From Pseudomonadota bacterium (GTDB lineage: Bacteria > Pseudomonadota > Alphaproteobacteria > Sphingomonadales > SMXR01), in assembly GCA_022574255.1 (NCBI GenBank), contig JACZSK010000003.1, forward strand, positions 7,270-71,269: DNA of 64,000 nucleotides, in the 5' to 3' direction. Below, piece after piece: positions 27,299 to 63,058 of the stretch. The translations under genes were made by a program, and so were the position numbers. The number at the start of each line of letters is the position of its first letter. Positions within the stretch are counted from its first letter, which is position 1. The notes below the pieces were generated by a model. The model ran no database searches, was not told the origin of the DNA, and saw nothing but the letters and a program-made list of their open reading frames with translations.

Positions 27299-27314
27299 AT
27301 GCAAACGTTTGCAT
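27299..27314. promoter_or_regulatory. Operator-like palindrome copy 1: ATGCAAACGTTTGCAT (perfect 16-mer)
   Basis: Read directly. About 75-90 bp upstream of the M24/E1/E2 operon start. LacI/GalR-type layout with a central CG. Confidence 0.7.
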
Positions 27315-27400
27315 AAATATCTCACGCCACCTTCCGAGAGTCAACATTATGCACCCAAATGATCGCCGGTAGAAGCGATTTGCCGGTATCTTGGTGCTGT

Positions 27401-28156
27401 TCAGGATGCCAGAAGCCCGTCATACAGCAGCTTGAACTCCATCAGCACCAATATGGAAATCAGCAGGCGATCGAATATCTCGCGGCTGATGGTCTTGGCC
27501 ATGCGCATGCCCAGCGGCAGGAAAATGACAACCGGTGCAAGTGCGATCACCCCCTCGAATACGCGCTCCGGGGTGTAAAGGCCAAGCCTGGTCAGTGAAA
27601 TTACCTGGACCACGGAGATCATCAGGAAGGTGGCCGAAATGGCGCAGACATATGAGCGCTGGGTCAGCCCGATGGCATGATAATAGGGTGCTATCACCGG
27701 CGCCGAAATGCCGCTGGTGCCCTGTACCGCCCCCGCGGCGAGGCCCGCAATCGGTCCGGCCCAGCGGTTCTGGGCGTCGCTCAGCCTGAAGCTGGGGTTG
27801 CGCCACTGGTGCAGCAGATACAGCCCCAACACACCGGCGAGCAGAAGCGACAGCCCACGGGCGCTGACATTCACCAGCACCAGCGAGCCGAGCACGCCGC
27901 CAACGGCGGCGGTGACCAGGAATGGAACCAGCCGCTTTAGCACCGGCCATTCGTCGCGGTGGGTCAAAACCAGCCAGGTATTGGAAAAGAGGCTGGGAAT
28001 AATCATGATCAGCACCGCCCGCTCGACGCCGAAAAAGCCGGCCATGATGGGCATGGCCAGAATAGGCAGGCCGACGCCGGTGATGCCCTTGGCGAAGGTG
28101 CCAACGGCAATGGCGGTGACGATAATCAGTATGACCGGGAGTGTAAGCGCGTCCAT
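27401..28156 (-). CDS. TauE/SafE-family (DUF81) anion exporter/permease
   Basis: 251 aa and polytopic. The N-terminus ...AVGTFAKGITGVGLPILAMPIM is typical of TauE/SafE. Confidence 0.8.
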   Translation of the reverse strand: MDALTLPVILIIVTAIAVGTFAKGITGVGLPILAMPIMAGFFGVERAVLIMIIPSLFSNTWLVLTHRDEWPVLKRLVPFLVTAAVGGVLGSLVLVNVSARGLSLLLAGVLGLYLLHQWRNPSFRLSDAQNRWAGPIAGLAAGAVQGTSGISAPVIAPYYHAIGLTQRSYVCAISATFLMISVVQVISLTRLGLYTPERVFEGVIALAPVVIFLPLGMRMAKTISREIFDRLLISILVLMEFKLLYDGLLAS

Positions 28157-28232
28157 TCTGCTCGGTTTTCCTGGTGGTTTTACTCGGTCTGGGCCAGCCC
28201 CGTTATTAACGCCATGATTTCGCTATAGCTAG

Positions 28233-28246
28233 TGCAATCGTTTGCA
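28233..28246. promoter_or_regulatory. Operator-like palindrome copy 2: TGCAATCGTTTGCA
   Basis: In the divergent region between the TauE-like gene (ATG 28156) and the MFS gene (ATG 28339). Confidence 0.65.
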
Positions 28247-28338
28247 GTATAAGAGAATATGCACAGGGACAGCAACTCGGATAATAGAGCCGCAGGGCCA
28301 TATCCATTAATTTTGGCGGAGCAACGGGGGCAGGGCAG

Positions 28339-29658
28339 ATGACAGCCGGGGAGCAGGAGACAGGGGAGCAGGAAGCGGGGGCGCAAGCGGCGGCGGACGA
28401 GGGCAGGTCGCTGATATCATTCAACGGCAAGGTGGCGTTGCTCGTGGCAACGGCATTGGCGCTCTTGGGGACGCCGCTGGTCTCGCCGGCAATGAAGGAT
28501 ATCGCCATTGCCTTTGCCGACCAGACCCAGACCGACCCGGTGGGGCGGGCGATCATGGAGCTTATCGGCTGGTTCAGTGATACCGCCGATATAAAATTCC
28601 TGATTAAATTCATCCTCCTGTCGATCCCCGCGCTTTTCATCGTGCTGGCGGCGCCGCTGGCCGGCTGGCTGTCGGATATCTGGGGGCGCAGGAAGCTGCT
28701 GATCGCATCCCTGCTGCTGTTTGCCGCGGCCGGCACGTCGGGCTATTTCGTCGACACCCTGACCGGGCTGTTTATCGGCCGCGCCTTTTTGGGTATCGGC
28801 ATCGCCGGCATCAAAACACTCAGCGTCGCCATGGTCGGCGACTACTTCACCGGCGCCGAACGGGCCAAATTTATTGGCTGGCAGGGCGCCGCCATGAAAC
28901 TGGGCGGCGTGGTTTTCCTGCTGTTGGGCGGCTTCCTGGCCGACATCCATTGGTCGATACCCTTCTGGGGATATATGCTGGCCTTCGTAGCCTTGCCCGG
29001 CGTCCTGTTCTCTCTTCATGAAAGCGCCCCGCAAAAGACCGCGGTTGCCGCTGGCGATACCGCCGCGCCGCTTCCGCCGCTGCCGCTGCTGCGTGTCGCC
29101 TATATATTGTTTGCCGCCTTTGTCGCCTCGGTGCTGTTTTTCATAACCCTGGTACAGATACCGTTCTTCATCCCCGAGCGGTTTGGCGGCACACCGGGGC
29201 AGATCGGCGTCGCCACGGCCCTGGCGAATTTAAGTGCGGCCATCGTCGCCATGCAATTTTACCGCTTCAAGGCGCGGCTCAGTTATGTGGCTATTTTCGC
29301 CTATGTCTTTTTCATGGTCGGGCTGGGATACGCGGTGGTCGCCATAGCCCCCAGCTACGAGGTGTTGTTGGTCGGCATGGTGATCGCGGGCTGCGGTTTC
29401 AGCCAGATCGTGCCGGCGCAAAGTGCATGGATGATTGCAACTGTGCCTGCGGCGCGCCGCGGCCTCGGCATAGGCCTGGTCACCACCGCCATGTTTCTCG
29501 GTCAGTTCGCTTCGCCCATCGCCATCCAGCCTTTTGTCGACGAAGCCGACCCCGCCCGTGTTTTCGTGGTGGCGAGCGCGGCGCTGTTCGTGTTGTTCAT
29601 TGTCTACGCGGGCCAGGCATTCATGGCGCGGAAATCGGTCGCGACGGAGGCCGGATAA
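28339..29658 (+). CDS. MFS transporter
   Basis: 439 aa, about 12 TM segments, MFS loop motif (LSDIWGRRKLL). Confidence 0.8.
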   Translation: MTAGEQETGEQEAGAQAAADEGRSLISFNGKVALLVATALALLGTPLVSPAMKDIAIAFADQTQTDPVGRAIMELIGWFSDTADIKFLIKFILLSIPALFIVLAAPLAGWLSDIWGRRKLLIASLLLFAAAGTSGYFVDTLTGLFIGRAFLGIGIAGIKTLSVAMVGDYFTGAERAKFIGWQGAAMKLGGVVFLLLGGFLADIHWSIPFWGYMLAFVALPGVLFSLHESAPQKTAVAAGDTAAPLPPLPLLRVAYILFAAFVASVLFFITLVQIPFFIPERFGGTPGQIGVATALANLSAAIVAMQFYRFKARLSYVAIFAYVFFMVGLGYAVVAIAPSYEVLLVGMVIAGCGFSQIVPAQSAWMIATVPAARRGLGIGLVTTAMFLGQFASPIAIQPFVDEADPARVFVVASAALFVLFIVYAGQAFMARKSVATEAG

Positions 29659-29677
29659 AAACAAGGGGAGCGAACCA

Positions 29678-30709
29678 GTGGCGATAGACTGTAGCAGGAT
29701 ACGAAGACCGGGTGCGGCAGCAACGCTGGCGTTGGGATTGCTGCTTGTCGCATGCGACGGCACATCCGCGGGCGACGATGCCGCGGGATCGGTCGCTGCA
29801 CAGATCAATCCTGAAAATGTGCTGATTATCGAGCAGGTCGAGGGCTCGGATATTCCGGTCCGCTTGATGTATGTCGAGGTCATCGACGGGCTTTATGCGC
29901 CGATTGGAATTCGCAAGCCCGCCGGAGACGGCCCGTTCCCGATGGTTCTTTTCGCTTCCGGCAATGGCGGTGGTGGCATGGCATGGATCAGGGAGGCCAC
30001 CCGGAACCGGAGTTGGGCCCAGGAACGGCTGGTTGAGGCCGGTTACGCCGTTGCCTGGTTGCGTTACCGCGCGGAAGTGGAACTGGGCTATAACAACGGC
30101 GGAAAGCTGGTTCAGGGCGTTCGCCAGGGCCGTCAGCTTCTCAATCGCAGCCCCCTGGAATACGAAGACGAGATCGCAATTATCGAGTTCGTGAAGAAAC
30201 TCGATTTTGTCGACCCTGATCGGATCGGGATCGTCGGGCTCAGCCACGGCGGCGAGATGGTGCTCAAAATCCTGTCCGAATACGGCGGTGTTGCGGTGGG
30301 CATAGCGAACGAGCCGGCCAGTCACGAATTTCTTGCCCTGAGACCGCCCGAAGAATCGACCTCTGTGAGCCAGGATACGAAAATGCGAGACCTTGAAGAG
30401 ATGCAGTTGCGCACCGCCAGCGCCGTCCGCTCGCGGGTCGATCTGGATGTGGCATTGGCGCGAATCGCAACAATCAATACGCCTGTTCTGGTCATGGGCC
30501 GGGATCAGGATCACCTCCAGGGAATATTCCGCACCACCTACGAGTTGATGGCCGAGGCCGGAAAAGACGTGGAATGGGTTTCATACGAACATCCGGAACA
30601 TGGCTATATCTATCCCTATCGGGGCGAGGACGGCGCCTACCGCGTGGACGATGTGCAGATTGAGGCGCTGGGCAAAGCCATCGCCTATCTCGATCGCTAT
30701 CTGAAATAG
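29678..30709 (+). CDS. Alpha/beta-hydrolase lipoprotein (S9 / dienelactone-hydrolase-like)
   Basis: The track start at 29534 overlaps the MFS gene. I chose GTG 29678, 7 nt after an AAGGGGAG SD. Lipobox LLLVAC. Nucleophile elbow GLSHGGEM. C-terminal HPEHGY. Confidence 0.7.
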   Translation: MAIDCSRIRRPGAAATLALGLLLVACDGTSAGDDAAGSVAAQINPENVLIIEQVEGSDIPVRLMYVEVIDGLYAPIGIRKPAGDGPFPMVLFASGNGGGGMAWIREATRNRSWAQERLVEAGYAVAWLRYRAEVELGYNNGGKLVQGVRQGRQLLNRSPLEYEDEIAIIEFVKKLDFVDPDRIGIVGLSHGGEMVLKILSEYGGVAVGIANEPASHEFLALRPPEESTSVSQDTKMRDLEEMQLRTASAVRSRVDLDVALARIATINTPVLVMGRDQDHLQGIFRTTYELMAEAGKDVEWVSYEHPEHGYIYPYRGEDGAYRVDDVQIEALGKAIAYLDRYLK

Positions 30710-30789: not shown

Positions 30790-30805
30790 ATGCAATCGTT
30801 TGCAT
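30790..30805. promoter_or_regulatory. Operator-like palindrome copy 3: ATGCAATCGTTTGCAT
   Basis: 74 bp upstream of the TonB-dependent receptor ATG at 30879. Confidence 0.7.
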
Positions 30806-30878: not shown

Positions 30879-33185
30879 ATGTGCAAGACTCAATATTTCA
30901 AAGTTACGACCGCGCTGCTCACGTCGTTGATGGCGCTTGGTGTAGTGGACGCCCCGGTTTTGGCGCAAGACTCGAGTGACGCGGTGTTGGAGGAAATTCT
31001 TGTCACCTCGCGGCGCTACGAGGAAAGTGCGCAGGATGCGCCGGTGTCCGTGAATGTCATCACTGCCGATTATTTTGAAAAACAGCGCATCGAAACGGTC
31101 GATGACATTATCCAGTTGACGCCTGGCGCCAGCTTCATCCGCTTCAACAAGCTGCAGTCCGAATATAACATTCGTGGCATCAACGCCAATGCCGAGGGCT
31201 CGTCGGTTGAAGCAGCCATCGTCACCGTGATCGACAATATTCCTGTATCCAAGGACTTCATGAAAAACCCGGCGATGTTCGATATTGCGCGGGTTGAGGT
31301 TTTGCGCGGACCGCAGGGCACTTCTTTCGGGCGTAACGCATCGGCCGGGCTGGTGCATATTATTTCCCAGCGGCCGAGCCAGGAATTTAGCGGAAGAATT
31401 ACCGCCGGCGCCGGCAGCCATGGCCTCTTCGAGGCCGACGGGTATATTAACGGGGCTCTGTCAGAGACGCTGTCCGCCCGCCTCGCTTTCAATGTGGACA
31501 GCTACGATGGCTACACCGAATCGACCTCGACGGGCGAGGGCCTGGACGGGCAAAAGAATTTCGCCATTCGCGGATCGCTGCTGTTTGAGCCGAGCAGCAA
31601 TCTCAGCATTTACCTGAAGGTGGAATATAACAAGGACGATGATGAAACGCCGGTGCGCCGCTCACGGGATTGTACAATCCCGACTCTTGACCCAACTGCC
31701 GGCCCGCCTCATCCGATTTGGGCTGCGGCTTATACCGATTCCTGCGACGTCTGGAAGACCGAAATTTCGGACGGTGATTTTTTCGTCAAACGCGAGATAT
31801 TCAATTTTACCGGCGAGATCGTCTACGAATTTGGCGACGGCATCACCCTGACTTCGGAAACCGGCTATCTGGACGGGTCCACCGACCGGCTGCAGGAAGC
31901 TCATGGCACGCCGGAAAATGTTCTGTGGCAGCGCGGCGTGTCAGACGCCAGCTCATTCAGCCAGGAATTGAGATTGGACAATCATGCCAGCGACGCGGCT
32001 TTTCGCTGGCTGGCAGGCGTCTATTATCTGACCGACGAGCATGACAAGTTCGACGAGAATCAGTTCTTCCAGAACGGTGGCGCCGGGCGGCCCGATACGC
32101 GGGACACCAAAATCTCGCGTAACGAGTCAGACAGCATCGGCCTGTTTGGCGAGCTGACATATGATGTTAGCGACAGGCTCACTGTCACCGGCGGCGCACG
32201 CTGGACCAAGGACGACAAGGACTATCAGATCGCCCATACGGCCTTTGGCTGGGGCGGGCCCATAGACGGGGTCAGTGGCCCCGAAGGGACCTGTAATTTC
32301 TTCCCGCCGGGCGGTCAGTTTATCTGTGGTCTCTCCGGTTTCTCAACACCCGTTGCCGTAAGTGACAGTTGGAGCGATGTGGCCTTCAAGGGCTCGGCGA
32401 GCTATCGCATTAGCGACGAGCATGTGGTCTATGCCCTTATTTCTCAGGGCTATAAAGCCGGTGGCTTCCAGTCCGAGCCGCTGACGGTAGCCTTGGCTCA
32501 GGAATCCTTCAACGAAGAAACGTCCACCAGTTACGAGCTGGGCTGGAAGGGCGAGATCAGCGGTCGGGCGCGCTTCAGCATTGCCGCTTATTTCCAGGAG
32601 TATAATGATCTGCAACTGTCTGGATTTCGCACCACGGCGACCAGCTTCAGCCAGATTATTTTCAACGCCGGCGGTGTCGAGACTCTGGGAATTGAGGCCG
32701 AGGCGACCATCCTTGTGACACCGGATTTCCGCCTCAACGGCAGTCTGGCGGTCCTGGATACAAAATTGAAGGACACCTTCCTGGACACCGACGGAGACGG
32801 TGTTGATGAGGACTTCAGCGGCTTCCGGCCCGACAATGCGCCCAAATGGACCGCTACATTCAACGCCGAATATGACTTCCACCTGTCCGGCGGCTCGACC
32901 ATAACGCTGAGGGCCGACTATCGCGGCCGCAGCAGCATCTGGGATGACATTATTGACCGCGACCTGGTCACCGATACGCGGCTGCGTCCCGGTGCCGATG
33001 TCTTCGGCGCTCGCATCTCCTGGCTGTCCGAGGACGAAACAATAACGGCATCGCTGTGGGGCAAAAATTTGTTCGAGGAAGAGGAAATCCTCAATATCGG
33101 ACCGCCTCAGCCCAATACGCTGCAGTTGCCGGTGGCCTTCGGTCCGCCGCGCACCTTTGGCGGATCGGTCAGCTATCGATTCTGA
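30879..33185 (+). CDS. TonB-dependent receptor
   Basis: 768 aa. Signal peptide (...VLAQ). Plug motifs (ILVTSRRYEE..DAPVSVNVIT, VEVLRGPQGTSFGRNA). The beta-barrel ends ...GGSVSYRF. Confidence 0.9.
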   Translation: MCKTQYFKVTTALLTSLMALGVVDAPVLAQDSSDAVLEEILVTSRRYEESAQDAPVSVNVITADYFEKQRIETVDDIIQLTPGASFIRFNKLQSEYNIRGINANAEGSSVEAAIVTVIDNIPVSKDFMKNPAMFDIARVEVLRGPQGTSFGRNASAGLVHIISQRPSQEFSGRITAGAGSHGLFEADGYINGALSETLSARLAFNVDSYDGYTESTSTGEGLDGQKNFAIRGSLLFEPSSNLSIYLKVEYNKDDDETPVRRSRDCTIPTLDPTAGPPHPIWAAAYTDSCDVWKTEISDGDFFVKREIFNFTGEIVYEFGDGITLTSETGYLDGSTDRLQEAHGTPENVLWQRGVSDASSFSQELRLDNHASDAAFRWLAGVYYLTDEHDKFDENQFFQNGGAGRPDTRDTKISRNESDSIGLFGELTYDVSDRLTVTGGARWTKDDKDYQIAHTAFGWGGPIDGVSGPEGTCNFFPPGGQFICGLSGFSTPVAVSDSWSDVAFKGSASYRISDEHVVYALISQGYKAGGFQSEPLTVALAQESFNEETSTSYELGWKGEISGRARFSIAAYFQEYNDLQLSGFRTTATSFSQIIFNAGGVETLGIEAEATILVTPDFRLNGSLAVLDTKLKDTFLDTDGDGVDEDFSGFRPDNAPKWTATFNAEYDFHLSGGSTITLRADYRGRSSIWDDIIDRDLVTDTRLRPGADVFGARISWLSEDETITASLWGKNLFEEEEILNIGPPQPNTLQLPVAFGPPRTFGGSVSYRF

Positions 33186-33213
33186 TGCAGGGATAATGAC
33201 ATCATTGACCTGG

Positions 33214-33247
33214 GAAAGTGGCAGTACAGGATTGTGCTGCCACTTTC
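33214..33247 (+). terminator. Putative intrinsic terminator after the TonB-dependent receptor
   Basis: Perfect 11-bp inverted repeat GAAAGTGGCAG-N12-CTGCCACTTTC, 29 nt after the stop. The trailing U-tract is weak (TTGCGGGTTTG). Confidence 0.4.
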
Positions 33248-33309
33248 TTGCGGGTTTGATATCTTAATCAGGAGAGGCCGGAATTGATCGGTAGAGCCGG
33301 AGGGTGACA

Positions 33310-34338
33310 ATGTCAGGAATTTCGCCAGACCGCCGCAGGATTATCAAGGCCGCCGCCGCCGCGGTTGGCGTCGCTGCGTTATCGCCATTGCGGGGCCTGG
33401 CGATGGCCGCCGCCAGGCCTGGTCTTCAGGCGATCGAACTGATCAGCTTTCCCGGCAGCTACAATGTCATTCTGTGGGCGGCTGCGGAATTGGGTTTTTT
33501 TGCCGCCGAGGGGCTGGCGGTCGGCCATGAACTGACCACCACTTCCATGTATCTGGCGCGCAAGACAGTGGCCGGAGATTTTCACATCGCCATCGCCGCA
33601 ATTGACAATGTGGTGGCCTACAACGAGGGTCAGGGCCAAGTGGTGCTGGATCGGCCCGCGGACCTGTTCGCCTTCATGAATCTCAGGCCCAATACCGTGC
33701 TGCCACTTCTGGTTCAGGGAGACATCGCCACTTTCGATGACTTGCGGGGCCGCACCCTGGCGGTGGACGCCATTTCCACGGGATTCTCCTTTGTCCTGCG
33801 CAAAATTCTCGAGGTTCATGGTCTGGGCCCCGAGGATTATGAGCTGGTCTCGGTGGGTAACGCCCGGGACCGCCTGCAGGCCCTGAAAGCGGGCGATCAC
33901 GCCGGTGCGGTTCTGACACCGCCCTTCGACGGCATGGCCAAAGCCGCCGGACTGAAAGTACTTGGCTCCAGCGCCGACGCTTTTCCCCAGTACCAGGGCA
34001 CCTGTTTTATTTCCACGCGGCGCTGGGCCAATAGTAACCGCGCCAGCCTTGTGGCGTTCACTCGCGCCGTGTTGCGCGCCGGGGCCTGGCTGAAAGACCC
34101 TGTCAACCGGGCGGAGGCCGCAAATATTCTCGTGCGGAACATGCCGCAACTCAGCGCTAAAGCGGCTGCAGGGGCGGTGGCGGGGTTGGCCGCGCGCCTC
34201 GACCCTGATCTGAATATGGCGGGGATCGAGACCGTGCTGGCGCTGCGTTCGCAATATGCCGTACCCGCCAGAAAACTGGATGACCCGATGCGATATATCG
34301 ACCTGTCTTATCTCAACGCGGCGCAGGCCAGCCTCTGA
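33310..34338 (+). CDS. Tat-signal periplasmic substrate-binding protein (NMT1/THI5, NitT/TauT-like) with no cognate ABC permease or ATPase nearby
   Basis: ATG 33310 lies 6 nt after a GGAGGG SD (the track start is GTG 33304). Twin-arginine signal (PDRRRIIKAAAAAVG). SBP-like body (FPGSYNVILWAAAELGFF...). Confidence 0.65.
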   Translation: MSGISPDRRRIIKAAAAAVGVAALSPLRGLAMAAARPGLQAIELISFPGSYNVILWAAAELGFFAAEGLAVGHELTTTSMYLARKTVAGDFHIAIAAIDNVVAYNEGQGQVVLDRPADLFAFMNLRPNTVLPLLVQGDIATFDDLRGRTLAVDAISTGFSFVLRKILEVHGLGPEDYELVSVGNARDRLQALKAGDHAGAVLTPPFDGMAKAAGLKVLGSSADAFPQYQGTCFISTRRWANSNRASLVAFTRAVLRAGAWLKDPVNRAEAANILVRNMPQLSAKAAAGAVAGLAARLDPDLNMAGIETVLALRSQYAVPARKLDDPMRYIDLSYLNAAQASL

Positions 34339-34378
34339 GGCTTCCGGCGCCATCCGCGTGTCCTTGAAGGGGGTTAAA

Positions 34379-36012: not shown

Positions 36013-36026
36013 TGCAAACGATTGCA
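36013..36026. promoter_or_regulatory. Operator-like palindrome copy 4: TGCAAACGATTGCA
   Basis: 29 bp upstream of the 2Fe-2S subunit ATG at 36055. Confidence 0.65.
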
Positions 36027-36507: not shown

Positions 36508-36510
36508 GCC

Positions 36511-39455: not shown

Positions 39456-39475
39456 CTGATTATGCCCCGGCGGGC

Positions 39476-42716: not shown

Positions 42717-42720
42717 GGCG

Positions 42721-43134: not shown

Positions 43135-43160
43135 CGCCGGATATCTCCTCTCGCTGGACT

Positions 43161-50911: not shown

Positions 50912-50942
50912 GGCAAAACTCCCCCAGTATGACCGCGAAGCC

Positions 50943-52169: not shown

Positions 52170-52182
52170 AGGTACAGTTCCT

Positions 52183-52908: not shown

Positions 52909-52965
52909 ATGTTTGACCTCCGGCCCGATATTTTCCAACCCCACAGCTTTCGCCCCTTTTTTGCG

Positions 52966-54442: not shown

Positions 54443-54458
54443 ATGCAAACGATTGCAT
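54443..54458. promoter_or_regulatory. Operator-like palindrome copy 8: ATGCAAACGATTGCAT
   Basis: In the divergent region between M24 copy 2 (ATG 54294, -) and the 54524 (+) operon. Confidence 0.7.
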
Positions 54459-55033: not shown

Positions 55034-55560
55034 TCGCCCGGTCGATGCAATACGGATTTTTGCCGGCGCTTTTGGTGCTGCTGTTGGTCGTGCAGGTTGC
55101 CGGAGCGGGTGAGAACGAGGCGTTGGAATTCCGGCGCATCGATCCCCCGACGCTGAACCGCCATCCTTTTTATTCGCAGGTCACGGTGGTGCAGGGCGAC
55201 GCCAAACATATCTATGTGGCGGGGCAGACCGACCGGGCGGTCGATTACAAGTTCGGCGACAATGCCTGCCGTCACGACGACTGGCGCGGGCAATATATCG
55301 GCGTCCATGAAAATGTCGGCAAGGCGCTGGCCGCCGCGGGAGCCACATGGGACGACGTGGTTTTCATCCGCCGCTTTGTCACCGATATGAAGGGGTTCCG
55401 CAGCGTCATGGGCGACAAGGAAAACCCGCCGCCAAAGCTGTGGAAGAATCGCCGCCCGCCGCCATCCACATTGATTCAGGTGGTAGCCCTTTCCGAACCC
55501 TGCCAGTTGCTTGAGGTAGACGTGTTTGCGGTGGTTACCGAAGACTCGGCGTCGGAGTGA
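55030..55560 (+). CDS. RidA/YjgF/L-PSP-family protein with a predicted signal peptide
   Basis: The GTG start overlaps the upstream stop; ATG 55045 is an alternative. The N-terminus MQYGFLPALLVLLLVVQVAGA is signal-like. RidA-like core IYVAGQTD...NVGKALAAAGATWDDVVFIRRFVTDM...PPSTLIQVVALSEP.LLEVDVFAV. Confidence 0.65.
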   Translation: MIARSMQYGFLPALLVLLLVVQVAGAGENEALEFRRIDPPTLNRHPFYSQVTVVQGDAKHIYVAGQTDRAVDYKFGDNACRHDDWRGQYIGVHENVGKALAAAGATWDDVVFIRRFVTDMKGFRSVMGDKENPPPKLWKNRRPPPSTLIQVVALSEPCQLLEVDVFAVVTEDSASE

Positions 55561-56399
55561 CAGGCCCGCGATCTCTCCCCGGGTCACTGCGCCACCTCTT
55601 TGCCGGTCTCGCGGGTGTTGTTTTTTGCTATTCCCTTGCCCTGCCGGTGCTGGCTCAGGAATCCGGCGCCGGGTCCAACAGCGCTAACTGGGCGATCAAC
55701 GAAATTCACTTCCAGTATGGCCGCCTGAAAAACCCGACCTTCGCGGGCGGCGGGTCCAGCGACACCTATACGGTGACCTGGCAGCATGTCAGCCGTTTGG
55801 GATTTCTCGACAATTTCTGGTTTGTCGATGCCAGGGCCCCCGAGGGTGGCGAAAAGGATATTTACCTGGAAGTCTATACCACCGCCAGTCTGGGCCGGCT
55901 GACGGGAAAGTCATTTTCCTTCGGCCCGATCCGCGATATGGGGCCGCGCGTCGCCATTAACTGGGGTGCAAAAACCAATATCCGTAAATATCTGGCGGGC
56001 TGGCGCCTGAGCTGGAACATCCCCGGCTTCACAATCCTGAATACCGATTTTTACGCATTTTTTGACGACAGTGGCGGGCTCGCCTCGGGCGGTGTGCCCA
56101 AACAGACCGACAGTTGGCAGGCCGATCTGAACTGGGTCTATCCAATTCGCTGGGGCTCGCAGCGTTTCTCGGTGGAGGGCCATTTTGAATATACCGGCCA
56201 GCGCCGCAACGAGTTGGGAGCCCGCGTCGCCCGCAGCCTGCTGGGGCAGCCGCAGTTTCGCTTCGACCTGGGCAATGCAATGCTTGGCAAGCCGGATAAA
56301 TTGTTTGTCGGCATCGAACTGCTGATCTGGCTGAACAAGCTGGGCGACGCGGCCACCGACGAAGCCCGCGTTCAGGCTCTGGTCGCCTGGCGCTTTTGA
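55557..56399 (+). CDS. Tsx/OmpK-family outer-membrane channel
   Basis: GTGA start/stop overlap. Signal peptide ...LPVLAQE. SLGRLTGKSFSFGPIRDM aligns with OmpK SLDAVTGKDLSFGPVQEL. Ends ...ALVAWRF. Confidence 0.65.
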   Translation: MTGPRSLPGSLRHLFAGLAGVVFCYSLALPVLAQESGAGSNSANWAINEIHFQYGRLKNPTFAGGGSSDTYTVTWQHVSRLGFLDNFWFVDARAPEGGEKDIYLEVYTTASLGRLTGKSFSFGPIRDMGPRVAINWGAKTNIRKYLAGWRLSWNIPGFTILNTDFYAFFDDSGGLASGGVPKQTDSWQADLNWVYPIRWGSQRFSVEGHFEYTGQRRNELGARVARSLLGQPQFRFDLGNAMLGKPDKLFVGIELLIWLNKLGDAATDEARVQALVAWRF

Positions 56400-56419
56400 A
56401 TGTAGAATAGGGGGTCTTG

Positions 56420-56950
56420 ATGGCCATAATATACAAGGGGGGGAACGGCGTGATCGGCAGGCTGGCCAAGGCAATCCATATTGTGTCTGCCTTCTGGGTG
56501 GTCGTGCTGGCCCTGATTATTTTCGTCGATGTGACGGGCCGGTATCTTTTCAGTTACCCCCTGTTGGGCGCCGCCGAGGTGATCAAGAATTCCGTTGTCT
56601 CGGTGACTTTCCTGCAGCTGCCGCTGGCTATCTACCGGGGCGGCATGATCCGCACGACCATACTGTATGATGCGGTCGGAGCCGGCGGCAAGCGCGCCAT
56701 TCGCACCTTCGCCAATATTCTGGGCCTGCTTTTCTTTTTCGCCACTGCCTACTCGTCTTGGGACCCCGCTATCGAGGCCTGGGGCATCGGCGAATATGAG
56801 GGCGAGGGCGCGCTGCGTGTGCCGACCTATCCGGTGCGGTTTCTGGTGGCGCTGACCTCGGCCTTCGCCGCTTTCATCTATCTGTATCTCATATACCTGG
56901 ACTGGACCGGCCAACTGGACGGCGAGAGCGGAGAGATCGTTGGTGCTTGA
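56420..56950 (+). CDS. TRAP transporter small permease (DctQ family)
   Basis: ATG 56420 lies 5 nt after a GGGGG SD (the track start is TTG 56417). 4 TM helices. ...FVDVTGRYLF..PL.GA.E... is typical of DctQ. Confidence 0.8.
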   Translation: MAIIYKGGNGVIGRLAKAIHIVSAFWVVVLALIIFVDVTGRYLFSYPLLGAAEVIKNSVVSVTFLQLPLAIYRGGMIRTTILYDAVGAGGKRAIRTFANILGLLFFFATAYSSWDPAIEAWGIGEYEGEGALRVPTYPVRFLVALTSAFAAFIYLYLIYLDWTGQLDGESGEIVGA

Positions 56951-56989
56951 TTCGGCGGAAATTTATGAACAGCGCAGGAGTAGTGTGTA

Positions 56990-58306
56990 GTGGGTCCGGA
57001 AGTCATTTTTTATTCATTGGGGATGCTGATCGTCCTGGTGCTGATGGGCGTGCATATTGGCATTGCCCTGGGGGTGACCAGCGCCGTCGGCGTTTATCTG
57101 ATTTTCGACAATTTCGATATTGCCATGTCGATCCTGGGCTCGACCGCCTACGAGGCTGTGCGCAGCCATGCGCTGGCGGTTATCCCGCTGTTCGTGCTGA
57201 TGGGTGAACTGGTCAGCCGATCCGGCGCCGCAACGTCCCTGTATACCCTTTGTGACCGCGCCATGGGCCGGCTGCCGGGCCGCCTGGCTGCCGCGACGGT
57301 GGTGGGCAACACCGCTTTTGCCGCCGTGTCCGGGGTGGCCATCGCCTCCGCGGCCACCTTCAGCCGCATCGCCTACCCGGAAATGAAGCGGCAGGGATAC
57401 GCTAATTCATACGCGCTGGGTGTGATCACCGGCAGCGCCTGCCTGGGCATGCTTATCCCGCCCAGCGTGTTGCTCATTATCTGGGCCATATTGACCGAGG
57501 GTTCGGTCGGTGCGCTGTTTATCGGCGGGGTGGTGCCGGGCATTCTGCTGGGCATAATTTTCATCGCCTATTGCGTTTTAGCGGCGATGCGAAACCCGGA
57601 AATCGCGCCGGGCACCGCACCGGGCGACAAACTTGAAAAGCAGGATCAGGACGTCAGCGTCCAGCGCGGCGGGCTGGGCGTTCTGGGGTTGATCATTGTT
57701 GTCCTTGGCGGCATATGGGGCGGGATTTTCACGCCCACCGAGGCGGCCGGTTTCGGGGTTCTGGGCAGCGCCGTGATCGGCTGGCTGAACGGCATGCGCT
57801 ACCGCGCTTTCATGGACGCTATTTACGACGCTGGCCGGTCGACGGCGCCGATCATGTTTCTGCTCATCACCGGTTCCATGTATGCCCGGCTGCTGGCCTT
57901 GAGCGGCGGCATCGACATGATCCAGGACCTGTTCACCGATGCCGGGCTGTCGATCTTCGCCATGATGCTGATCATGACACTGGTCTGGCTGCTGCTGGGC
58001 GCGCTGATCGACTCTATTTCCGTCATCTTGATGACCGTGCCGATCTTCTTCCCCATCGCCATGGCGGCGGGCCTCGACGAAATTGCTTTCGCCATTTACG
58101 GCATCCTGATTATCGAAGCGGGACTACTGACCCCGCCGGTCGGCCTGCTGGTGTTCACGGTCAAGGCGGCGGTGCCCGACCCGTCGGTGACACTGGGCGA
58201 AATATTCAGGGGCTCCGTGCCCTACTGGATCATGATGCTGGCGGTGGCGGTTTTGATCTTGCTGGTTCCGGAAATTGCCAGCTGGCTGCCGGGAAAGATG
58301 TTCTAG
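56990..58306 (+). CDS. TRAP transporter large permease (DctM family)
   Basis: 438 aa and polytopic. DctM-like blocks (AIPLFVLMGEL, SGVAIASAATFSRIAYPEM, GMLIPPSV). Confidence 0.9.
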   Translation: MGPEVIFYSLGMLIVLVLMGVHIGIALGVTSAVGVYLIFDNFDIAMSILGSTAYEAVRSHALAVIPLFVLMGELVSRSGAATSLYTLCDRAMGRLPGRLAAATVVGNTAFAAVSGVAIASAATFSRIAYPEMKRQGYANSYALGVITGSACLGMLIPPSVLLIIWAILTEGSVGALFIGGVVPGILLGIIFIAYCVLAAMRNPEIAPGTAPGDKLEKQDQDVSVQRGGLGVLGLIIVVLGGIWGGIFTPTEAAGFGVLGSAVIGWLNGMRYRAFMDAIYDAGRSTAPIMFLLITGSMYARLLALSGGIDMIQDLFTDAGLSIFAMMLIMTLVWLLLGALIDSISVILMTVPIFFPIAMAAGLDEIAFAIYGILIIEAGLLTPPVGLLVFTVKAAVPDPSVTLGEIFRGSVPYWIMMLAVAVLILLVPEIASWLPGKMF

Positions 58307-58316: not shown

Positions 58317-60017
58317 CTAAAATTCACCAAACACAAGGCGCCCGCCGACCATGGTGGCGAGGGGGCGGATATCCTTGATCTGGTCCACCGGAACGGTCAG
58401 GTAATCGCGGTCCAGCACCACCAGATCGGCCAGCATGCCCGGCGCGATGGAGCCCAGGTTTTCCTCCTGAAAGGTCAGCAGGGCGTTAGACCGGGTCATG
58501 GCGATCAGCGCCTCTTCGCGGGTTAAAACCTCCTTGCTGGTCACATTGCCATTGAGCATTTTCCCGGTCACCGCCCACCAGAGAGTAACGAAGGGGTTGA
58601 TCTGCGCGGCTTTTGTGCCGTCGGTGCCGAGGCCAAAGTCGATGCCGCTGTCCTGCACCAGCCGCAAAGGGGGCATGTGATATCCGGCTTCGCCGTAAGC
58701 GGCGGTTATTTCTTTCTGCCCGCCGATAACCCGCTGGCTGCGCAATTGCAGATTCATGCCCAGCGCCCGTGCCCGCTCAATCTGGGCGGCGCCGATATTG
58801 TCGGCGTGGGTCACCGACCATCTGAGAGGGCGCAGCGGATGGGTTTTGTTGATCTCTTCCATGACCGTCAGCAACCGGTCCAGATTGGCCGGGTGAATGG
58901 CATGGGTCTGCACCGGCCAGCCAGCGGCGGCGGCGGCCAACAATATTTCGTGGCCCATTGCAATGTCCGCACTGCCGGGGTTCACCTTCCGAGTCATCTG
59001 GTCCCAGTGGAATGCGGGATAATAAACTTCTCCCATGGCGATCTGGTTGAACCACACATCGCCCTGAAAGGGGCGCGTGCTGCGGATTACTTCAATGAAT
59101 TCACGGGCCTTTTCCGGCGTGTTGATGACCAGCCCGCCCCACAGGGTGTAATAGACTCGAAGTGACAGCTTACCGGCGTCGGCTAGTGTCGCGAAGCGTT
59201 GGTAGCTGGCGGGGTTGATCCCTGATCCGCCGGGGTCGAATACCGTCGTCAGGCCTAAACTATTCAGGTAGCCCAGCATGGCGGCGATGCCTTCGAACTG
59301 CTCGGCCTCGTCGACCGCCGGAAAGCGCTGCATGGCGCGAATGATCATGGGAAAGCCGCCGTTGAGCCGCCCCGTTGCCCGGCCATTGGCGTCGCGTACC
59401 ACATCGCCGGCCAGTCCAGCCGCACCGGAGGTTTCCGCCGCCGGGGCCACCACCGGTATGCCCATGGCGCGTAGCCAGGCCGAATTCACCAGCGCATGGT
59501 CGTACATGGCCTGCATGAACAGGGGATTGCCGGGTGCCACCCCATCCAGTTCGGCCAAGGTGAAGCTGTCGTTACTGTCAGTGAACTGATCTTCATACCA
59601 GCCACCCAGCGAGAATATCCACTTTCCGTTTGCCAGCGTCGCTGCCCGGGCGGCCAGCAGCGCAAGGGTATTTTTGCGGCTCGCCACCCCGTCCAGCCGC
59701 ACTTCGCTGGCCCAATATTCGGTGGCACGAATGATGTGACTGTGATTGTCGATCAGGCCGGGGATAACCGTCCGCCCGCTCAAATCGATAATGCGGGTAT
59801 CGGGCCCGGCCAGGGCGGTGAGTGTCTCGCTGTCGCCGACGGCGGTGATCCGCTGGCCGCGAATTGCCACGGCCTGCGCAATTGAGAAACCGGCATCCAC
59901 CGTGACGATTTTTCCGTTCGTCAATATCAGGTCCGGTTCACTGCCGGCCGAGGCAATAGCGGCTGATGCCGCCAGCAGGCACGCGGCCCCGGCCAACAGT
60001 GTTCTGATAAATTTCAC
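58317..60017 (-). CDS. Amidohydrolase-3 (YtcJ-like) family metal-dependent hydrolase, periplasmic
   Basis: 566 aa. Signal peptide (MKFIRTLLAGAACLLAASAAIASA). PGLIDNHSH metal motif. C-terminal ...GSIAPGMLADLVVLD. GTG start. Confidence 0.8.
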   Translation of the reverse strand: MKFIRTLLAGAACLLAASAAIASAGSEPDLILTNGKIVTVDAGFSIAQAVAIRGQRITAVGDSETLTALAGPDTRIIDLSGRTVIPGLIDNHSHIIRATEYWASEVRLDGVASRKNTLALLAARAATLANGKWIFSLGGWYEDQFTDSNDSFTLAELDGVAPGNPLFMQAMYDHALVNSAWLRAMGIPVVAPAAETSGAAGLAGDVVRDANGRATGRLNGGFPMIIRAMQRFPAVDEAEQFEGIAAMLGYLNSLGLTTVFDPGGSGINPASYQRFATLADAGKLSLRVYYTLWGGLVINTPEKAREFIEVIRSTRPFQGDVWFNQIAMGEVYYPAFHWDQMTRKVNPGSADIAMGHEILLAAAAAGWPVQTHAIHPANLDRLLTVMEEINKTHPLRPLRWSVTHADNIGAAQIERARALGMNLQLRSQRVIGGQKEITAAYGEAGYHMPPLRLVQDSGIDFGLGTDGTKAAQINPFVTLWWAVTGKMLNGNVTSKEVLTREEALIAMTRSNALLTFQEENLGSIAPGMLADLVVLDRDYLTVPVDQIKDIRPLATMVGGRLVFGEF

Positions 60018-60032
60018 TTGCGATATTCCCGG

Positions 60033-60419
60033 TTATGTATTGCCGGCGCGTTTCAGGCCGATGGTGCTGAAAAGGGCCGCCAATATCCACAGCGCTGGGC
60101 CAACAAGACCCGGCCCCAGCGGAAAATATCCGGGCAGCAGCAGCAAGACAATAAATCCAATATCCGCAAGACTGACCAAGCCCAGGTTAAGCCAGTAGCC
60201 GAAGCGGTCGTTGTTCCAGTTCAGCCTGGCCGCGATGGCAATTGTTGCGCTGGCGATGATCGCCAGGTTCAGCCCGGCCTGCGCCATTCTTGCCGCCAGC
60301 GCCGGATCGGAAATTCCGCCGGACAGCTTGTAAATCTGAAACCCGGCAAAAAGATGCAGCAGGCCCCACACCACATACAGTGCCCCGCCAATCTTGTGCG
60401 CGCCAATTCTTTGCATCAT
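60033..60419 (-). CDS. Hypothetical small integral membrane protein (4 TM)
   Basis: 128 aa. GGGAGA SD. Lies between the TonB-dependent receptor and the amidohydrolase on the same strand. I recognise no family. Confidence 0.5.
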   Translation of the reverse strand: MMQRIGAHKIGGALYVVWGLLHLFAGFQIYKLSGGISDPALAARMAQAGLNLAIIASATIAIAARLNWNNDRFGYWLNLGLVSLADIGFIVLLLLPGYFPLGPGLVGPALWILAALFSTIGLKRAGNT

Positions 60420-60492
60420 GTCCTGTCTCCCGCAAACGAAGCGACCGGCGCCCCCGTGGACACCGGCTCTTCGTCCGTATCAAATAATCGGC

Positions 60493-62916
60493 CTAGAAAC
60501 GTTTGGTGATTTCAACGCCCCACTCCCTGAGCTTGCCATAGAAAAACAGTCCGCTGGGGTTAAAGCCCTCGGCGAAATAATTCTCATTGCTCAGGTTCTT
60601 GGACCAGACGGCAACCTGGAGACCCTCGCCGAAATTCAGGCCGGCACGGGCGCTGAACAGGTTCAGCGGATCCCGCTTGGAGAAGTTCTCAGGTACGAAG
60701 AAAAGGCTGCCGATGCGCTGGTAATCGGCGCGCAGGAAGATGCTGCCTTCGCCGGATCCAATTGTTATCGGCCGCTCATACTGTACGCCGACATTCGCGG
60801 TGGTCCTTGGCGTTTGCGGCGCCCAGTTTCCGACCAATCCGCGGGCGCTGTCTTTGGTCACCTCGGAATTGGTATAACCATAACTGGCCGACACTGACAG
60901 GCCCTCGGCCAGCAGCAATGTCGCGTCTATCTCAACGCCGTACAATTCAACCTCGTCTATCGGAATAATAATTTGCGACGCGGCCAGGAAGGCGTTGAAG
61001 GTAAAGGTCTGATAGTCGTCAACTATGGTGTAGAAGGCCGCCGCATTGACCACAAACCGGCCGTTCAGAGAATTGTATTTGATGCCGCCTTCGAAGCTCT
61101 TGGTCTCCTGCTTGGCGAAAAGATCCTCGACGCCCAGCGGGATGTTGTCTTCTCCCAGTATCGGCCTGAGGAAGTTTGCCCGATCACCGATGCCAGGCCG
61201 GTTAAATCCGCCGCTGCGGAAACCCTGGGCATAGGTCACATAGGTCGTAATGTTTTCCCGCGGCATCCAGCGCAGGGTTATCTTTGGCTGAAACGAGTCG
61301 AATGTGGCCGAGCGCGTGTCGCCAAAGGCCAGGTCGGTCGGGAATGCCAGGAACTGGTCCGGCGTCAGGATTGTCTGCTTCCTCTTGTCGCTGTCGTAGC
61401 GCAGAGAAACCGACAGCTCAAGTGTCTCGGAAACGTCATAGTTGAACTGCGCGAACACGGCAAAGGCGGTGTTGCTGGCGTCATCGCCGTCAAAGCTCAT
61501 GACGCAGTTGCCCTGGTTGTCGCCGGCACTTCCCGGTGGCAACGGCGATGCGACGCAGACCCCGGGGGTTATGGCGAAGGGATCCCGGGTGACGAAATCC
61601 ACCAGCGAATCGATGCCGTCAAAGTCACGCTGCACCGTGGTCGACAGAAAAGCGTCTGTTGCCACGAAATAGGCGCCCACGATCCAGCGGAAATCCTGCT
61701 CGTCAGGCGAGGTCAGCCGTATCTCCTGGCTCCAGGCCTCCGTATTGCGGTACTGCGAGTTTTTCTGCGAGGCAATGGCTGTGCGCGGTGGCTGCTCGCC
61801 CATCGCCTTGTTGGTTACCTTGTCCCAGGATGAGGTAGAGGTCAGCGTGCCGACTTCCAGGTCCCAGTTCATCAGCAGCGAAATATTATAAAGCCGACGA
61901 CGATCAATACCGTTCAGATTGTTCTGCAGCGGCACCGTAGTGTTGTTGATATTGCCGACGCCGATGGGGATCGGCTGGTTGAAGGGGTCGTCGAAGAAGC
62001 TTCTGTCGCCGCCGACGACCGGCCCGGCCGAAGCCAGCCCGCAGGTCGGGCCAGGACATGAGAAGGCGCCGATCGCCACGCCCAGGGAAACGCCCGAGCC
62101 GGGGGCGGTCTCGTGAAAGATGGCCGAGACATCGGTAAACTGCAGCGCGTTGGTATTATCGTCGGAAAAAGAGACCCTCAGATCGGCCTCGAATTTGTCG
62201 CTTTTCTCCCACAGCAACCTGCCGCGCGCCGAGACATTCTCTGCCTTGTCTGCGTTCACGCCGGTGGTGATATTTTCACGCAGGCCATCTGTGTTGTAGT
62301 AGGACACAGCCACCCGGCCATACAGCGAGTCCTCGATAATCGGGCCGCTGATCGCCGCCTGGCCTTTGAACGACTGACCATTTCCGTATCCGGCGCGGAC
62401 AAATCCCTCGAGTTCATTGGTCGGGCGCTTTGTGGTGATGTTGATGGCGCCGGCCATGGCGTTGCGGCCATAGAGCGCGCCCTGCGGGCCCTTCAGAACT
62501 TCGATCTGCTGGATATCAAAAAGTTCCTGCGACATTCCTATGGGTGAGGTCGACAAAACACCATCAATCACCACGGCGACCGACGAGTCGAGGTTACGCA
62601 TCTGGGTAATGCCGCGGATGTTCACAAAGGTGAAACCGGAATTCTGTGTTTCGACAAGGAAGAAATTGGGAATAATCTTGGCGTAATCCCGCATGCTCGA
62701 AACACCCATATTGTCCAGGTCGTCTGCAGTAAACGCAGTAATGGTCGCCGGCACATCCTGCAAATTCTCGCCGCGCTTACGGGCCGTTACAATAATTTCC
62801 TCTATTGCGAATGCGCCGTCGCCGCTGGACTGGGCATAAGCGGAATCAGCATTGACGGTCAGCGCTGCAACAGCACAGCCAGCCAACAACGTTGTGACAA
62901 AATTTCGCGAGATCAT
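60493..62916 (-). CDS. TonB-dependent receptor (second copy in the window)
   Basis: The track ORF runs to 63132. ATG 62916 gives the signal peptide MISRNFVTTLLAGCAVAALTVNADSAYAQ, with a purine-rich SD (GGGGGAGG) just upstream. Plug motifs (IIVTARKRGENLQDVPATITA, IEVLKGPQGALYGRNA). Ends ...GVEITKRF. Confidence 0.9.
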   Translation of the reverse strand: MISRNFVTTLLAGCAVAALTVNADSAYAQSSGDGAFAIEEIIVTARKRGENLQDVPATITAFTADDLDNMGVSSMRDYAKIIPNFFLVETQNSGFTFVNIRGITQMRNLDSSVAVVIDGVLSTSPIGMSQELFDIQQIEVLKGPQGALYGRNAMAGAINITTKRPTNELEGFVRAGYGNGQSFKGQAAISGPIIEDSLYGRVAVSYYNTDGLRENITTGVNADKAENVSARGRLLWEKSDKFEADLRVSFSDDNTNALQFTDVSAIFHETAPGSGVSLGVAIGAFSCPGPTCGLASAGPVVGGDRSFFDDPFNQPIPIGVGNINNTTVPLQNNLNGIDRRRLYNISLLMNWDLEVGTLTSTSSWDKVTNKAMGEQPPRTAIASQKNSQYRNTEAWSQEIRLTSPDEQDFRWIVGAYFVATDAFLSTTVQRDFDGIDSLVDFVTRDPFAITPGVCVASPLPPGSAGDNQGNCVMSFDGDDASNTAFAVFAQFNYDVSETLELSVSLRYDSDKRKQTILTPDQFLAFPTDLAFGDTRSATFDSFQPKITLRWMPRENITTYVTYAQGFRSGGFNRPGIGDRANFLRPILGEDNIPLGVEDLFAKQETKSFEGGIKYNSLNGRFVVNAAAFYTIVDDYQTFTFNAFLAASQIIIPIDEVELYGVEIDATLLLAEGLSVSASYGYTNSEVTKDSARGLVGNWAPQTPRTTANVGVQYERPITIGSGEGSIFLRADYQRIGSLFFVPENFSKRDPLNLFSARAGLNFGEGLQVAVWSKNLSNENYFAEGFNPSGLFFYGKLREWGVEITKRF

Positions 62917-62998
62917 GAGCCTCCCCCTGGTGTTTTTTCCCTGTACTTCCAAATTTTGATATCTGGAACTAAGCCCCTTATAGCAACAGATCACCGTA

Positions 62999-63014
62999 AT
63001 GCAAACGTTTGCAT
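62999..63014. promoter_or_regulatory. Operator-like palindrome copy 9: ATGCAAACGTTTGCAT (perfect 16-mer)
   Basis: 84 bp upstream of the second TonB-dependent receptor ATG at 62916. Confidence 0.7.
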
Positions 63015-63044
63015 ATTTTAAGTCAAAGCCTCCGTGCAAAAGAT

Positions 63045-63058
63045 TGCAAACGATTGCG
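63045..63058. promoter_or_regulatory. Operator-like palindrome copy 10: TGCAAACGATTGCG (one mismatch)
   Basis: 45 bp centre-to-centre from copy 9, in the same upstream region. Confidence 0.55.

Follow-up and report, generated by a model that had tools for sequence, protein, structure and literature searches.

Copies of a near-invariant 14 bp palindrome as probable operators of a LacI-family regulator in an alphaproteobacterial gene island

The DNA considered here is a stretch of 64,000 nucleotides (the window) from a Pseudomonadota bacterium of the order Sphingomonadales (assembly GCA_022574255.1, contig JACZSK010000003.1, positions 7,270 to 71,269), with a G+C content of ~60%. Genes were called by third-position G+C and annotated with Pfam and NCBIfam, and near-identical metagenome contigs supplied the gene calls by which three gene starts were corrected. 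Of the 53 genes annotated, the only one found to encode a transcription factor is a LacI-family gene at 20058-21095. Beside it lies an island of transporter and enzyme genes (Table 1), and the intergenic regions of this island carry copies of a 14 bp palindrome, TGCAAWCGWTTGCA. Which protein reads the palindrome, and what do the genes behind it have in common?

A pattern search finds nine exact copies of the palindrome (operators 1-8 and the first of cluster 9-11 in Table 1); there is no copy 5' of the first of them. Allowing one mismatch adds two copies, TGCAAAAGATTGCA at 63035-63048 and TGCAAACGATTGCG at 63045-63058, the latter with its mismatch in the terminal ...TTGCG. These two share 4 bp and are 35-45 bp away from the exact copy at 63000; with them, the total is eleven. 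A three-mismatch search yields only three further matches, with ~10 matches at three or fewer mismatches expected by chance in all. The scarcity of variants with two or three mismatches indicates that copies are either near-perfect or absent. An initial annotation had listed ten copies of 14-16 bp. All ten are real and read as given, nine exactly and the tenth with one mismatch, but the eleventh (63035-63048) had been missed. The A/T flanks that make 16-mers of some copies are not conserved in other genomes, and the core is thus 14 bp.

All eleven copies are intergenic, as had been claimed, and intergenic DNA makes up 7.3% of the window. This takes the start of the second TonB-dependent receptor gene to be at 62916, where a signal peptide (MISRNFVTTLLAGCAVAAL...) follows a ribosome-binding site (GGGGGAGG), and not at the first ATG of the open reading frame (63132); the longest frame would otherwise overlie three sites. 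Copies lie 28-149 bp from flanking start codons. The proximity to start codons noted in the initial annotation stands, with its range of 29-160 bp corrected to these values. Nine copies are 28-92 bp from the nearest start codon that they face, the two imperfect copies are 118 and 128 bp upstream, and the farther genes of divergent gaps are up to 149 bp from the site. Four copies are in such gaps (28233, 42213, 44074 and 54444), again as first described. The spacing matches the range reported for LacI-family sites, three quarters of which fall within -140 to -30 of start codons (Ravcheev et al. 2014, PMC4052901).

Could the palindrome be a remnant of a repetitive extragenic palindromic (REP) or miniature inverted repeat transposable element, a hairpin terminator or other RNA element, or an artefact of chance or composition? 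It is short and perfect and is repeated only between genes, which is true of REP elements as well. However, the flanking 30 bp to each side show no similarity between copies and have an information content of ~0, so these copies are not those of a mobile repeat, and they stand upstream of start codons or in divergent promoter gaps rather than 3' of genes. The two W positions are non-complementary in five of the nine exact copies and show no compensatory changes; this implies conservation per half-site, as expected for a dimeric protein, and fits such a protein better than a hairpin. The window contains no Rfam family match and no tRNA, and a thiamine pyrophosphate riboswitch, which would have linked an NMT1-like gene to thiamine, is accordingly unsupported. 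The exact palindrome has a mean count of 0.00 in 100 dinucleotide-preserving shuffles, against nine in the window, and the same 14-mer is kept from Actinomycetota to Proteobacteria beside one family of regulators. A repeat, RNA element or artefact is so improbable as to be negligible.

The site has the form TGCAAW-CG-WTTGCA, an even-length palindrome with a central CG; a central CG is found in the motifs of 1173 of 1303 LacI-family factors (PMC4052901). The 20058-21095 protein carries the LacI helix-turn-helix (PF00356) at residues 10-57 and a sensor region matched by PF13377, PF00532 and PF13407 (Peripla_BP_1/3/4) over residues 70-340. Its hinge Leu63, within ALSLK, aligns with Leu55 of CcpA chain 1rzr_G and does not vary among 29 aligned homologs. 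In CcpA and PurR, the hinge leucine inserts at the central CpG of the operator. The LacI-type operator layout that had been recognized from the palindrome alone is matched by helix-turn-helix, sensor domain and hinge leucine in the regulator. At 345 amino acids, the protein is near the 340-residue PurR chains and shorter than the 360-residue Lac repressor, and it is likely to be a dimer. The nearest solved relatives are an ancestral-LacI reconstruction, CcpA and PurR. Against NCBIfam equivalog models, it scores (bits/cut-off) 224/382 for RbsR, 222/436 for CytR, 199/400 for GntR(Pa), 191/550 for UriR, 184/501 for PurR (NF007979) and 182/442 for CcpA. These scores are under every named cut-off and place the regulator in no named LacI subgroup.

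The LacI gene and the first site-bearing operon converge, and 14 bp separate the end of the former from the stop codon of the operon's last gene. At its other side, the LacI gene follows an FTR1 gene after a 78 bp gap, which holds no site, weak ones included, in line with the earlier remark that the gene has no copy upstream. A longer gap on L001, a metagenome scaffold with an identical LacI gene, is a scaffolding artefact (L001 8590-8610: a run of N, with the FTR1 end and LacI start duplicated).

Does the motif accompany the regulator in other genomes? Homologs at 85-91% identity occur only on metagenome contigs, followed by a large set at 50-68%. Eighty ortholog loci of 49-58% identity were scanned, one genome per species and each from a different assembly; they span Alpha-, Gamma- and Deltaproteobacteria and Actinomycetota (Solirubrobacterales, Nocardioides, Mycolicibacterium). 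Within 10 kb of the ortholog, TGCAANCGNTTGCA is present exactly in 47 of the 80 loci and with at most one mismatch in 72, and in 46 loci a site lies no more than 350 bp upstream of the regulator ortholog itself. In all, there are 178 sites in 1.38 Mb of ortholog loci; shuffled sequence gives 0-3. At the two positions that the search pattern leaves open, 97% of these sites have A or T, and bases beyond the 14-mer are unconserved. When the sites are sorted into coding and intergenic, a check that had been proposed at the outset, at most 13% fall inside crude open reading frame predictions that cover 71% of the DNA, and most of these are artefacts of over-long frames.

The typical layout elsewhere consists of a beta-hydroxyacid dehydrogenase gene divergent from the regulator gene with a site in between, then an operon of E2, aldehyde dehydrogenase, E1 beta, E1 alpha and M24 genes with an upstream site. 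The arrangement in the window is this layout minus the divergent dehydrogenase gene. The gene order of the M24a operon is found beside LacI orthologs in 16 loci, and M24a orthologs have an upstream site in ~25. Conservation upstream of orthologous targets, also proposed as a check, extends to other units: sites recur with orthologs of the MFS gene (loci L008, L043, L063, L068), the TonB-dependent receptors (L010, L027, L030), the 2Fe-2S/molybdenum enzyme (L047, L048, L084), the deiodinase-like protein (L006, L015), the CMD protein (L009, L010, L042, L062) and M24b (L007, L015, L027), and likewise upstream of DctP and GFO gene orthologs. In other genomes, a regulatory region often has two or three sites. 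Paired sites there are 13-142 bp apart (e.g. L024, L026, L030, L072, L074, L077, L083, L084). Footprinting against L086, a relative at 91% identity, was of no use because it is too close: of two intergenic regions compared, one is 85% and the other 98% identical.

Copies of the gene module that lack the regulator serve as negative controls. An M24-E1-E2-aldehyde-dehydrogenase module is present without a regulator on plasmids of Phaeobacter inhibens (pP92_e, L087) and Pacificitalea (pDY25-A, L088), and the motif is absent there. Both consist of genes for M24, E1 alpha/beta, a lipoyl protein, succinate-semialdehyde dehydrogenase and E2; LpdA comes after E2 in L087, and the L088 locus ends at E2. 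A sugar-type ABC transporter, short-chain dehydrogenases/reductases (SDRs) and a ThuA-domain protein adjoin the module. A part-module on a Paenarthrobacter plasmid (M24, a beta-hydroxyacid-dehydrogenase-like gene, an SDR and LpdA) has neither regulator nor motif. The absence of the motif from module copies without the regulator argues that it tracks the regulator and not merely the target genes. On a plasmid of Streptomyces sp. YIM 121038 (L090, 8711-24625), a LacI ortholog is divergent from an operon of dehydrogenase, M24 and succinate-semialdehyde dehydrogenase genes, and a degenerate site, TGCAATCGATTGTG, stands in the gap from which the regulator operon and the dehydrogenase operon diverge. 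The assignment of 20058-21095 as cognate regulator, offered at first as an admitted guess from adjacency, gains from this comparison: the motif accompanies orthologs in 72 of 80 loci and is missing where the module stands without a regulator.

How do the sites relate to promoters? Promoter calls here are matches to the sigma-70 consensus pattern and not mapped promoters. Sigma-70-like hexamer pairs end 0-4 nt before four sites: site 27300 starts 3 nt after a -10-like hexamer (TTGACT-17-GATATT, minus strand), 28233 abuts a minus-strand -10-like hexamer, 30791 starts 4 nt after one (TTGAGA-17-TAGACT) and 36013 begins at the last base of one (TTGGCC-17-TATACT). At 44074, the half-sites (TTGCAT) are themselves -35-like hexamers in both directions. 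Site 54444 overlaps a -35-like hexamer (TTGCAT-18-TATAAT, minus strand), and by eye TTGCAT-16-TATAAG begins inside the exact site 63000. With operators placed after -10-like or over -35-like hexamers, a bound protein would block RNA polymerase; the geometry suggests repression by occlusion.

The eleven TGCAAWCGWTTGCA copies are thus very probably operators of a dimeric LacI-family factor, in all likelihood the 20058-21095 product, which would repress about 13 transcription units (32-34 genes). Each helix-turn-helix domain would read one TGCAAW half-site, with hinge-helix Leu63 inserting at the central CG, and the bound protein would keep RNA polymerase from these units. All units would be turned on together when a small molecule releases the regulator; this effector is probably the substrate of the pathway or one of its early intermediates.

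Some points weigh against this. The regulator gene of the window has no upstream site, unlike most of its orthologs, so that orthology and synteny are what support the pairing in this genome. The view is limited to 64 kb, and a LacI-family paralog may be present elsewhere in the genome. No promoter-like hexamer pair was found by the consensus scan at 47983 or within reach of 42213. The genes are heterogeneous and four genes of the island (38748-41413) are without sites, which leaves a single pathway and effector as a proposal. The support comes from sequence comparison, from which binding, repression, operon boundaries and a single effector are inferred.

Might the sites serve another factor whose gene lies outside the window, either a LacI-family paralog or a protein of some other family, with the adjacent LacI gene controlling something else? 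The empty gap before the LacI gene and the 64 kb view are in keeping with this, since 72% of LacI-family factors are autoregulated (PMC4052901), as is the position of the ortholog beside a GFO/TRAP cluster, and not the M24a operon, in metagenome-assembled genomes (MAGs) of Caulobacterales and Hyphomonas (L015, L027, L030). Yet the motif tracks the orthologous group across phyla and, in 46 of 80 genomes, immediately precedes the ortholog, the 80 best loci come from 80 different assemblies, so that there is no genome with two copies among them, and the synteny of LacI gene and M24a operon is kept in the window. The CG-centred even palindrome with TG...CA arms is, moreover, the layout of LacI-family operators (PMC4052901). 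A separate factor is thus quite improbable.

Nor is it likely, although slightly less improbable than a separate factor, that the same protein and sites follow a different logic, either needing a co-repressor in order to bind DNA, as PurR needs hypoxanthine or guanine, or activating some units, as Cra and CcpA can. The inner 12 operator bases, GCAAWCGWTTGC, are those of the Escherichia coli PurR box core GCAAACGTTTGC, e.g. in the purMN box TCGCAAACGTTTGCTT (PMC3159470); one operon looks biosynthetic, with a cytidylyltransferase and a LeuA-like synthase; and the two sites out of reach of promoter-like hexamer pairs would also suit this logic. But uptake systems and degradative-type enzymes dominate, and induction by the substrate is the norm for such genes; the operators overlap promoter-like hexamers, or the start region, wherever such hexamers are found; and, at 184 against 501 bits, the regulator is not a PurR ortholog. 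The likeness to PurR is otherwise one of kind: a dimeric CG-centred even palindrome, many dispersed operators controlling many operons, and a conserved hinge leucine. The outer bases differ, being TG...CA here and CG...CG in the purMN, purC and purL boxes listed in PMC3159470. The PurR boxes of that list are also much more degenerate than the sites here, which are near-perfect and within 36 kb, whereas PurR boxes are scattered. The 53 annotated genes include none found to be of the pur, gua or pyr kind, the assigned regulon has no purine-biosynthesis gene, and a regulon for uptake and degradation is unlikely to work through a co-repressor.

Table 1. Palindrome copies (putative operators), regulator gene and predicted site-bearing units in the window
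Feature	Position	Strand	Remarks
LacI-family transcription factor gene	20058-21095	+	345 amino acids; convergent with first controlled operon
Operator 1, TGCAAACGTTTGCA	27300-27313		89 bp upstream of M24a start
Operon: M24a (DddP-like M24 protein), E1 alpha and E1 beta (pyruvate-dehydrogenase type), succinate-semialdehyde-dehydrogenase-like aldehyde dehydrogenase, E2	21110-27210	-	Pfam, NCBIfam; M24a start as in L001 gene call
Operator 2, TGCAATCGTTTGCA	28233-28246		divergent gap, TauE (-) / MFS (+)
TauE/SafE-family anion exporter	27401-28156	-	Pfam
MFS transporter, then alpha/beta hydrolase (S9/DLH-like)	28339-30709	+	Pfam; gene calls on L086
Operator 3, TGCAATCGTTTGCA	30791-30804		74 bp upstream of TonB-dependent receptor 1 gene
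TonB-dependent receptor 1, NMT1/SsuA-like solute-binding protein, LVIVD-repeat protein	30879-35929	+	Pfam, NCBIfam; predicted operon
Operator 4, TGCAAACGATTGCA	36013-36026		28 bp upstream of 2Fe-2S subunit gene
Two-subunit molybdenum hydroxylase: 2Fe-2S subunit and molybdopterin-binding subunit	36055-38751	+	Pfam, NCBIfam
Operator 5, TGCAAACGTTTGCA	42213-42226		divergent gap between two genes without family match
Gene without family match, 209 amino acids	41484-42113	-	no Pfam/NCBIfam match
Gene without family match, 150 amino acids	42264-42716	+	no Pfam/NCBIfam match
Operator 6, TGCAATCGTTTGCA	44074-44087		divergent gap, deiodinase-like (-) / CMD (+)
Deiodinase/AhpC-like thioredoxin-fold protein, then 137-amino-acid protein without family match	42721-43952	-	
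CMD-family protein, TRAP solute-binding protein DctP, D-2-hydroxyacid dehydrogenase, GFO/IDH/MocA oxidoreductase	44179-47886	+	
Operator 7, TGCAAACGTTTGCA	47983-47996		62 bp upstream of NHL-repeat protein gene
NHL-repeat beta-propeller protein	48059-49987	+	
Operator 8, TGCAAACGATTGCA	54444-54457		divergent gap, M24b (-) / gene without family match (+)
Operon: M24b, KdsB-like cytidylyltransferase, LeuA/homocitrate-synthase-like enzyme, metallo-beta-lactamase-fold hydrolase	50057-54294	-	
Operon: 169-amino-acid protein without family match, RidA, porin-like protein (weak Tsx match), TRAP DctQ, TRAP DctM	54524-58306	+	
Operator cluster 9-11	63000-63058		63000-63013 exact, plus two one-mismatch copies; 83-128 bp upstream of TonB-dependent receptor 2 gene
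TonB-dependent receptor 2, 128-amino-acid protein without family match, Amidohydro_3 enzyme	58317-62916	-	

Counting the same-orientation genes behind each site, the putative regulon comprises 34 genes in 13 predicted units at nine operator regions. The count is 32 if a strong terminator-like hairpin of 10 pairs (60467-60444), between the stop of the receptor 2 gene and the next open reading frame, ends transcription; the 128-amino-acid frame and the Amidohydro_3 gene may, given this hairpin, be separate from the site-controlled receptor unit. Either figure agrees with the estimate of over 30 genes in the initial annotation, provided that the operons are as predicted. The regulon had also been called unusually dense, and this is borne out by a survey of 1288 LacI regulons, of which 93% have 20 or fewer genes and 69% control one or two operons (PMC4052901). 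Transport functions include the two TonB-dependent receptors, the MFS protein, the TRAP system and the TauE-family exporter. The enzymes mostly do not look like those of carbohydrate metabolism: there are two M24 proteins, the pyruvate-dehydrogenase-type E1/E2, a GabD-like aldehyde dehydrogenase and the molybdenum hydroxylase, and further RidA, the Amidohydro_3 enzyme, a metallo-beta-lactamase-fold hydrolase, a LeuA-like synthase, a KdsB-like cytidylyltransferase, and GFO-type and D-2-hydroxyacid dehydrogenases. NHL-repeat and LVIVD-repeat propeller proteins and five proteins without family match complete the set. The latter five frames (41484-42113, 42264-42716, 42721-43134, 54524-55033 and 60033-60419) have coding-like third-position G+C and no Pfam or NCBIfam match. 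An exact-protein look-up found no identical protein on record for TonB-dependent receptor 2 or the 128-amino-acid frame.

How does this regulon compare with known LacI-family systems? A global LacI regulon has been defined as one of more than 15 genes in at least seven operons (Ravcheev et al. 2014, PMC4052901). The putative regulon is of this size, as are those of CcpA, FruR/Cra, PckR, GapR and GluR. Global regulons also control several distinct metabolic pathways; the enzyme families here are heterogeneous but could be matched to no pathway. The putative regulon was arrived at by the same route as the known ones, a palindromic motif plus phylogenetic footprinting. The known global regulons, however, concern central carbohydrate metabolism and are spread over the genome (PMC4052901), whereas here a contiguous island encodes transporters and peripheral, mostly non-sugar-type enzymes. 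Closest by score among the named models are RbsR (224 bits) and two local regulators of nucleoside and purine utilization, CytR (222) and UriR (191); these, with AdeR and HpxR, are LacI factors with non-sugar or ribose-type effectors (PMC4052901). The scores are nevertheless far under the cut-offs (382-550), and any nucleoside phosphorylase, kinase or ribose transporter is missing from the island, where a site-less YtoQ-family gene and a very weak Tsx-like match are the only hints of such a role. In the accessible portion of the supplement to PMC4052901, no match to the signature peptides and target functions of the subgroup appears. A literature search with all four variants of the 14-mer gave only unrelated matches with no relevant context, and nothing relevant was found on LacI combined with M24, pyruvate dehydrogenase, DddP, sulfolactate or TauE. 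What emerges is a new orthologous group and a regulon of a well-known kind, an ordinary switch that stands out by its large size, by the clustering and near-perfection of its operators, and by an unassigned target pathway found across phyla.

What might the effector be? The conserved core of the regulon, as judged from the gene sequences, is the DddP-like M24 protein, the pyruvate-dehydrogenase-type E1/E2 and the succinate-semialdehyde-dehydrogenase-like aldehyde dehydrogenase, joined elsewhere by the beta-hydroxyacid dehydrogenase. M24a and M24b are paralogs (32% identical) with full-length similarity to DddP structures; assignment of either as DddP, DoeA or PepQ is ruled out by NCBIfam scores. 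M24b (52966-54294) is 89-90% identical to proteins of the Caulobacterales and Hyphomonas MAGs (L007, L015, L027), whereas neighbouring genes are only 43-69% identical, and this excess suggests either very strong constraint on the enzyme or a recent transfer. The aldehyde dehydrogenase is GabD-like; the sulfolactaldehyde dehydrogenase of entry 8c54 is no nearer to it than E. coli GabD is. The beta-hydroxyacid dehydrogenases were considered as YihU, but their best score is for tartronate-semialdehyde reductase. The regulon transporter is of the branched-chain-amino-acid ABC type in Actinomycetota and a sodium:dicarboxylate symporter in some Proteobacteria, which points to a substrate that is small, acidic and not a sugar. 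An opposing hint is the sugar-type ABC transporter and ThuA protein beside the module on the Rhodobacterales plasmids.

The plasmids give no consistent substrate assignment, as their contexts are mixed: those of Rhodobacterales have a sugar-type ABC transporter and ThuA, that of Streptomyces an LLM monooxygenase together with a NitT/TauT-type ABC transporter, and that of Paenarthrobacter has sulR nearby. In the Streptomyces locus, the downstream genes encode a fused E1 alpha/beta, E2, a flavin reductase, the LLM monooxygenase and the ABC transporter, which is NitT/TauT-like by subunit sizes. The Paenarthrobacter part-module (Paenarthrobacter sp. R1, L089, 9196-16464: RidA, M24, beta-hydroxyacid-dehydrogenase-like protein, SDR, LpdA) lies among insertion sequence elements, with sulR, a flavin reductase gene of sulfonamide degradation, 2 kb away.

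It is possible, although we hold it as a tentative idea and somewhat doubtful, that the regulon marks an undescribed, phylum-spanning catabolic pathway for a non-carbohydrate metabolite, with a LacI-family protein that senses a non-sugar effector. A concrete version, for which the indications are weak, is a C3 organosulfonate route in which dihydroxypropanesulfonate would undergo oxidation via sulfolactaldehyde to sulfolactate, an M24 protein might carry out elimination to pyruvate and sulfite, and TauE might export the sulfite. The gene context in the Streptomyces locus (L090) is weakly in keeping with an organosulfonate theme. A nitrogen heterocycle or an amino-acid-like acid is an equally open alternative as substrate.

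The four island genes without a site (38748-41413) are an operon for an FAH-family hydrolase, a cupin and a HIBDH-type dehydrogenase, and the YtoQ-family gene; a search for weak sites upstream of the HIBDH or YtoQ genes found none. Nocardioides mangrovi (L067) has homologs of the FAH-family hydrolase, cupin and HIBDH proteins (43-57% identical), encoded ~9 kb away from its LacI ortholog. The region upstream of the regulon (8328-19979) has no sites and encodes a NapC/NirT cytochrome, a dihaem cytochrome c, a 905-amino-acid molybdopterin oxidoreductase and several 4Fe-4S proteins; the FTR1 iron permease at its end (18030-19979), likewise without a site, is fused to a cytochrome c domain. Farther upstream, a 139-amino-acid frame (4515-4934) matches only the barrel-sandwich part of HlyD/CusB membrane-fusion proteins and is probably a gene remnant.

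The mechanism of the proposed switch is itself textbook, and the value of the operator set is in what it ties together. One near-invariant 14-mer would join about 13 transcription units of mostly unassigned function into a co-regulated set, with five genes that match no family, two DddP-like M24 paralogs, two TonB-dependent receptors and a TRAP system among its members. The pair of regulator and operator is kept from soil Actinomycetota to marine Proteobacteria. It thereby offers a concrete handle on a widespread pathway, with a defined regulator, a defined operator and cultured carriers such as Iodidimonas nitroreducens Q-1, Reyranella sp. CPCC 100927, Nocardioides mangrovi GBK3QG-3, Mycolicibacterium sp. 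P9-64 and Streptomyces sp. YIM 121038. About 90% of the studied LacI-family members act as local regulators of pathways for the use of sugars (PMC4052901), and a rare non-carbohydrate regulon may here be added to the family.

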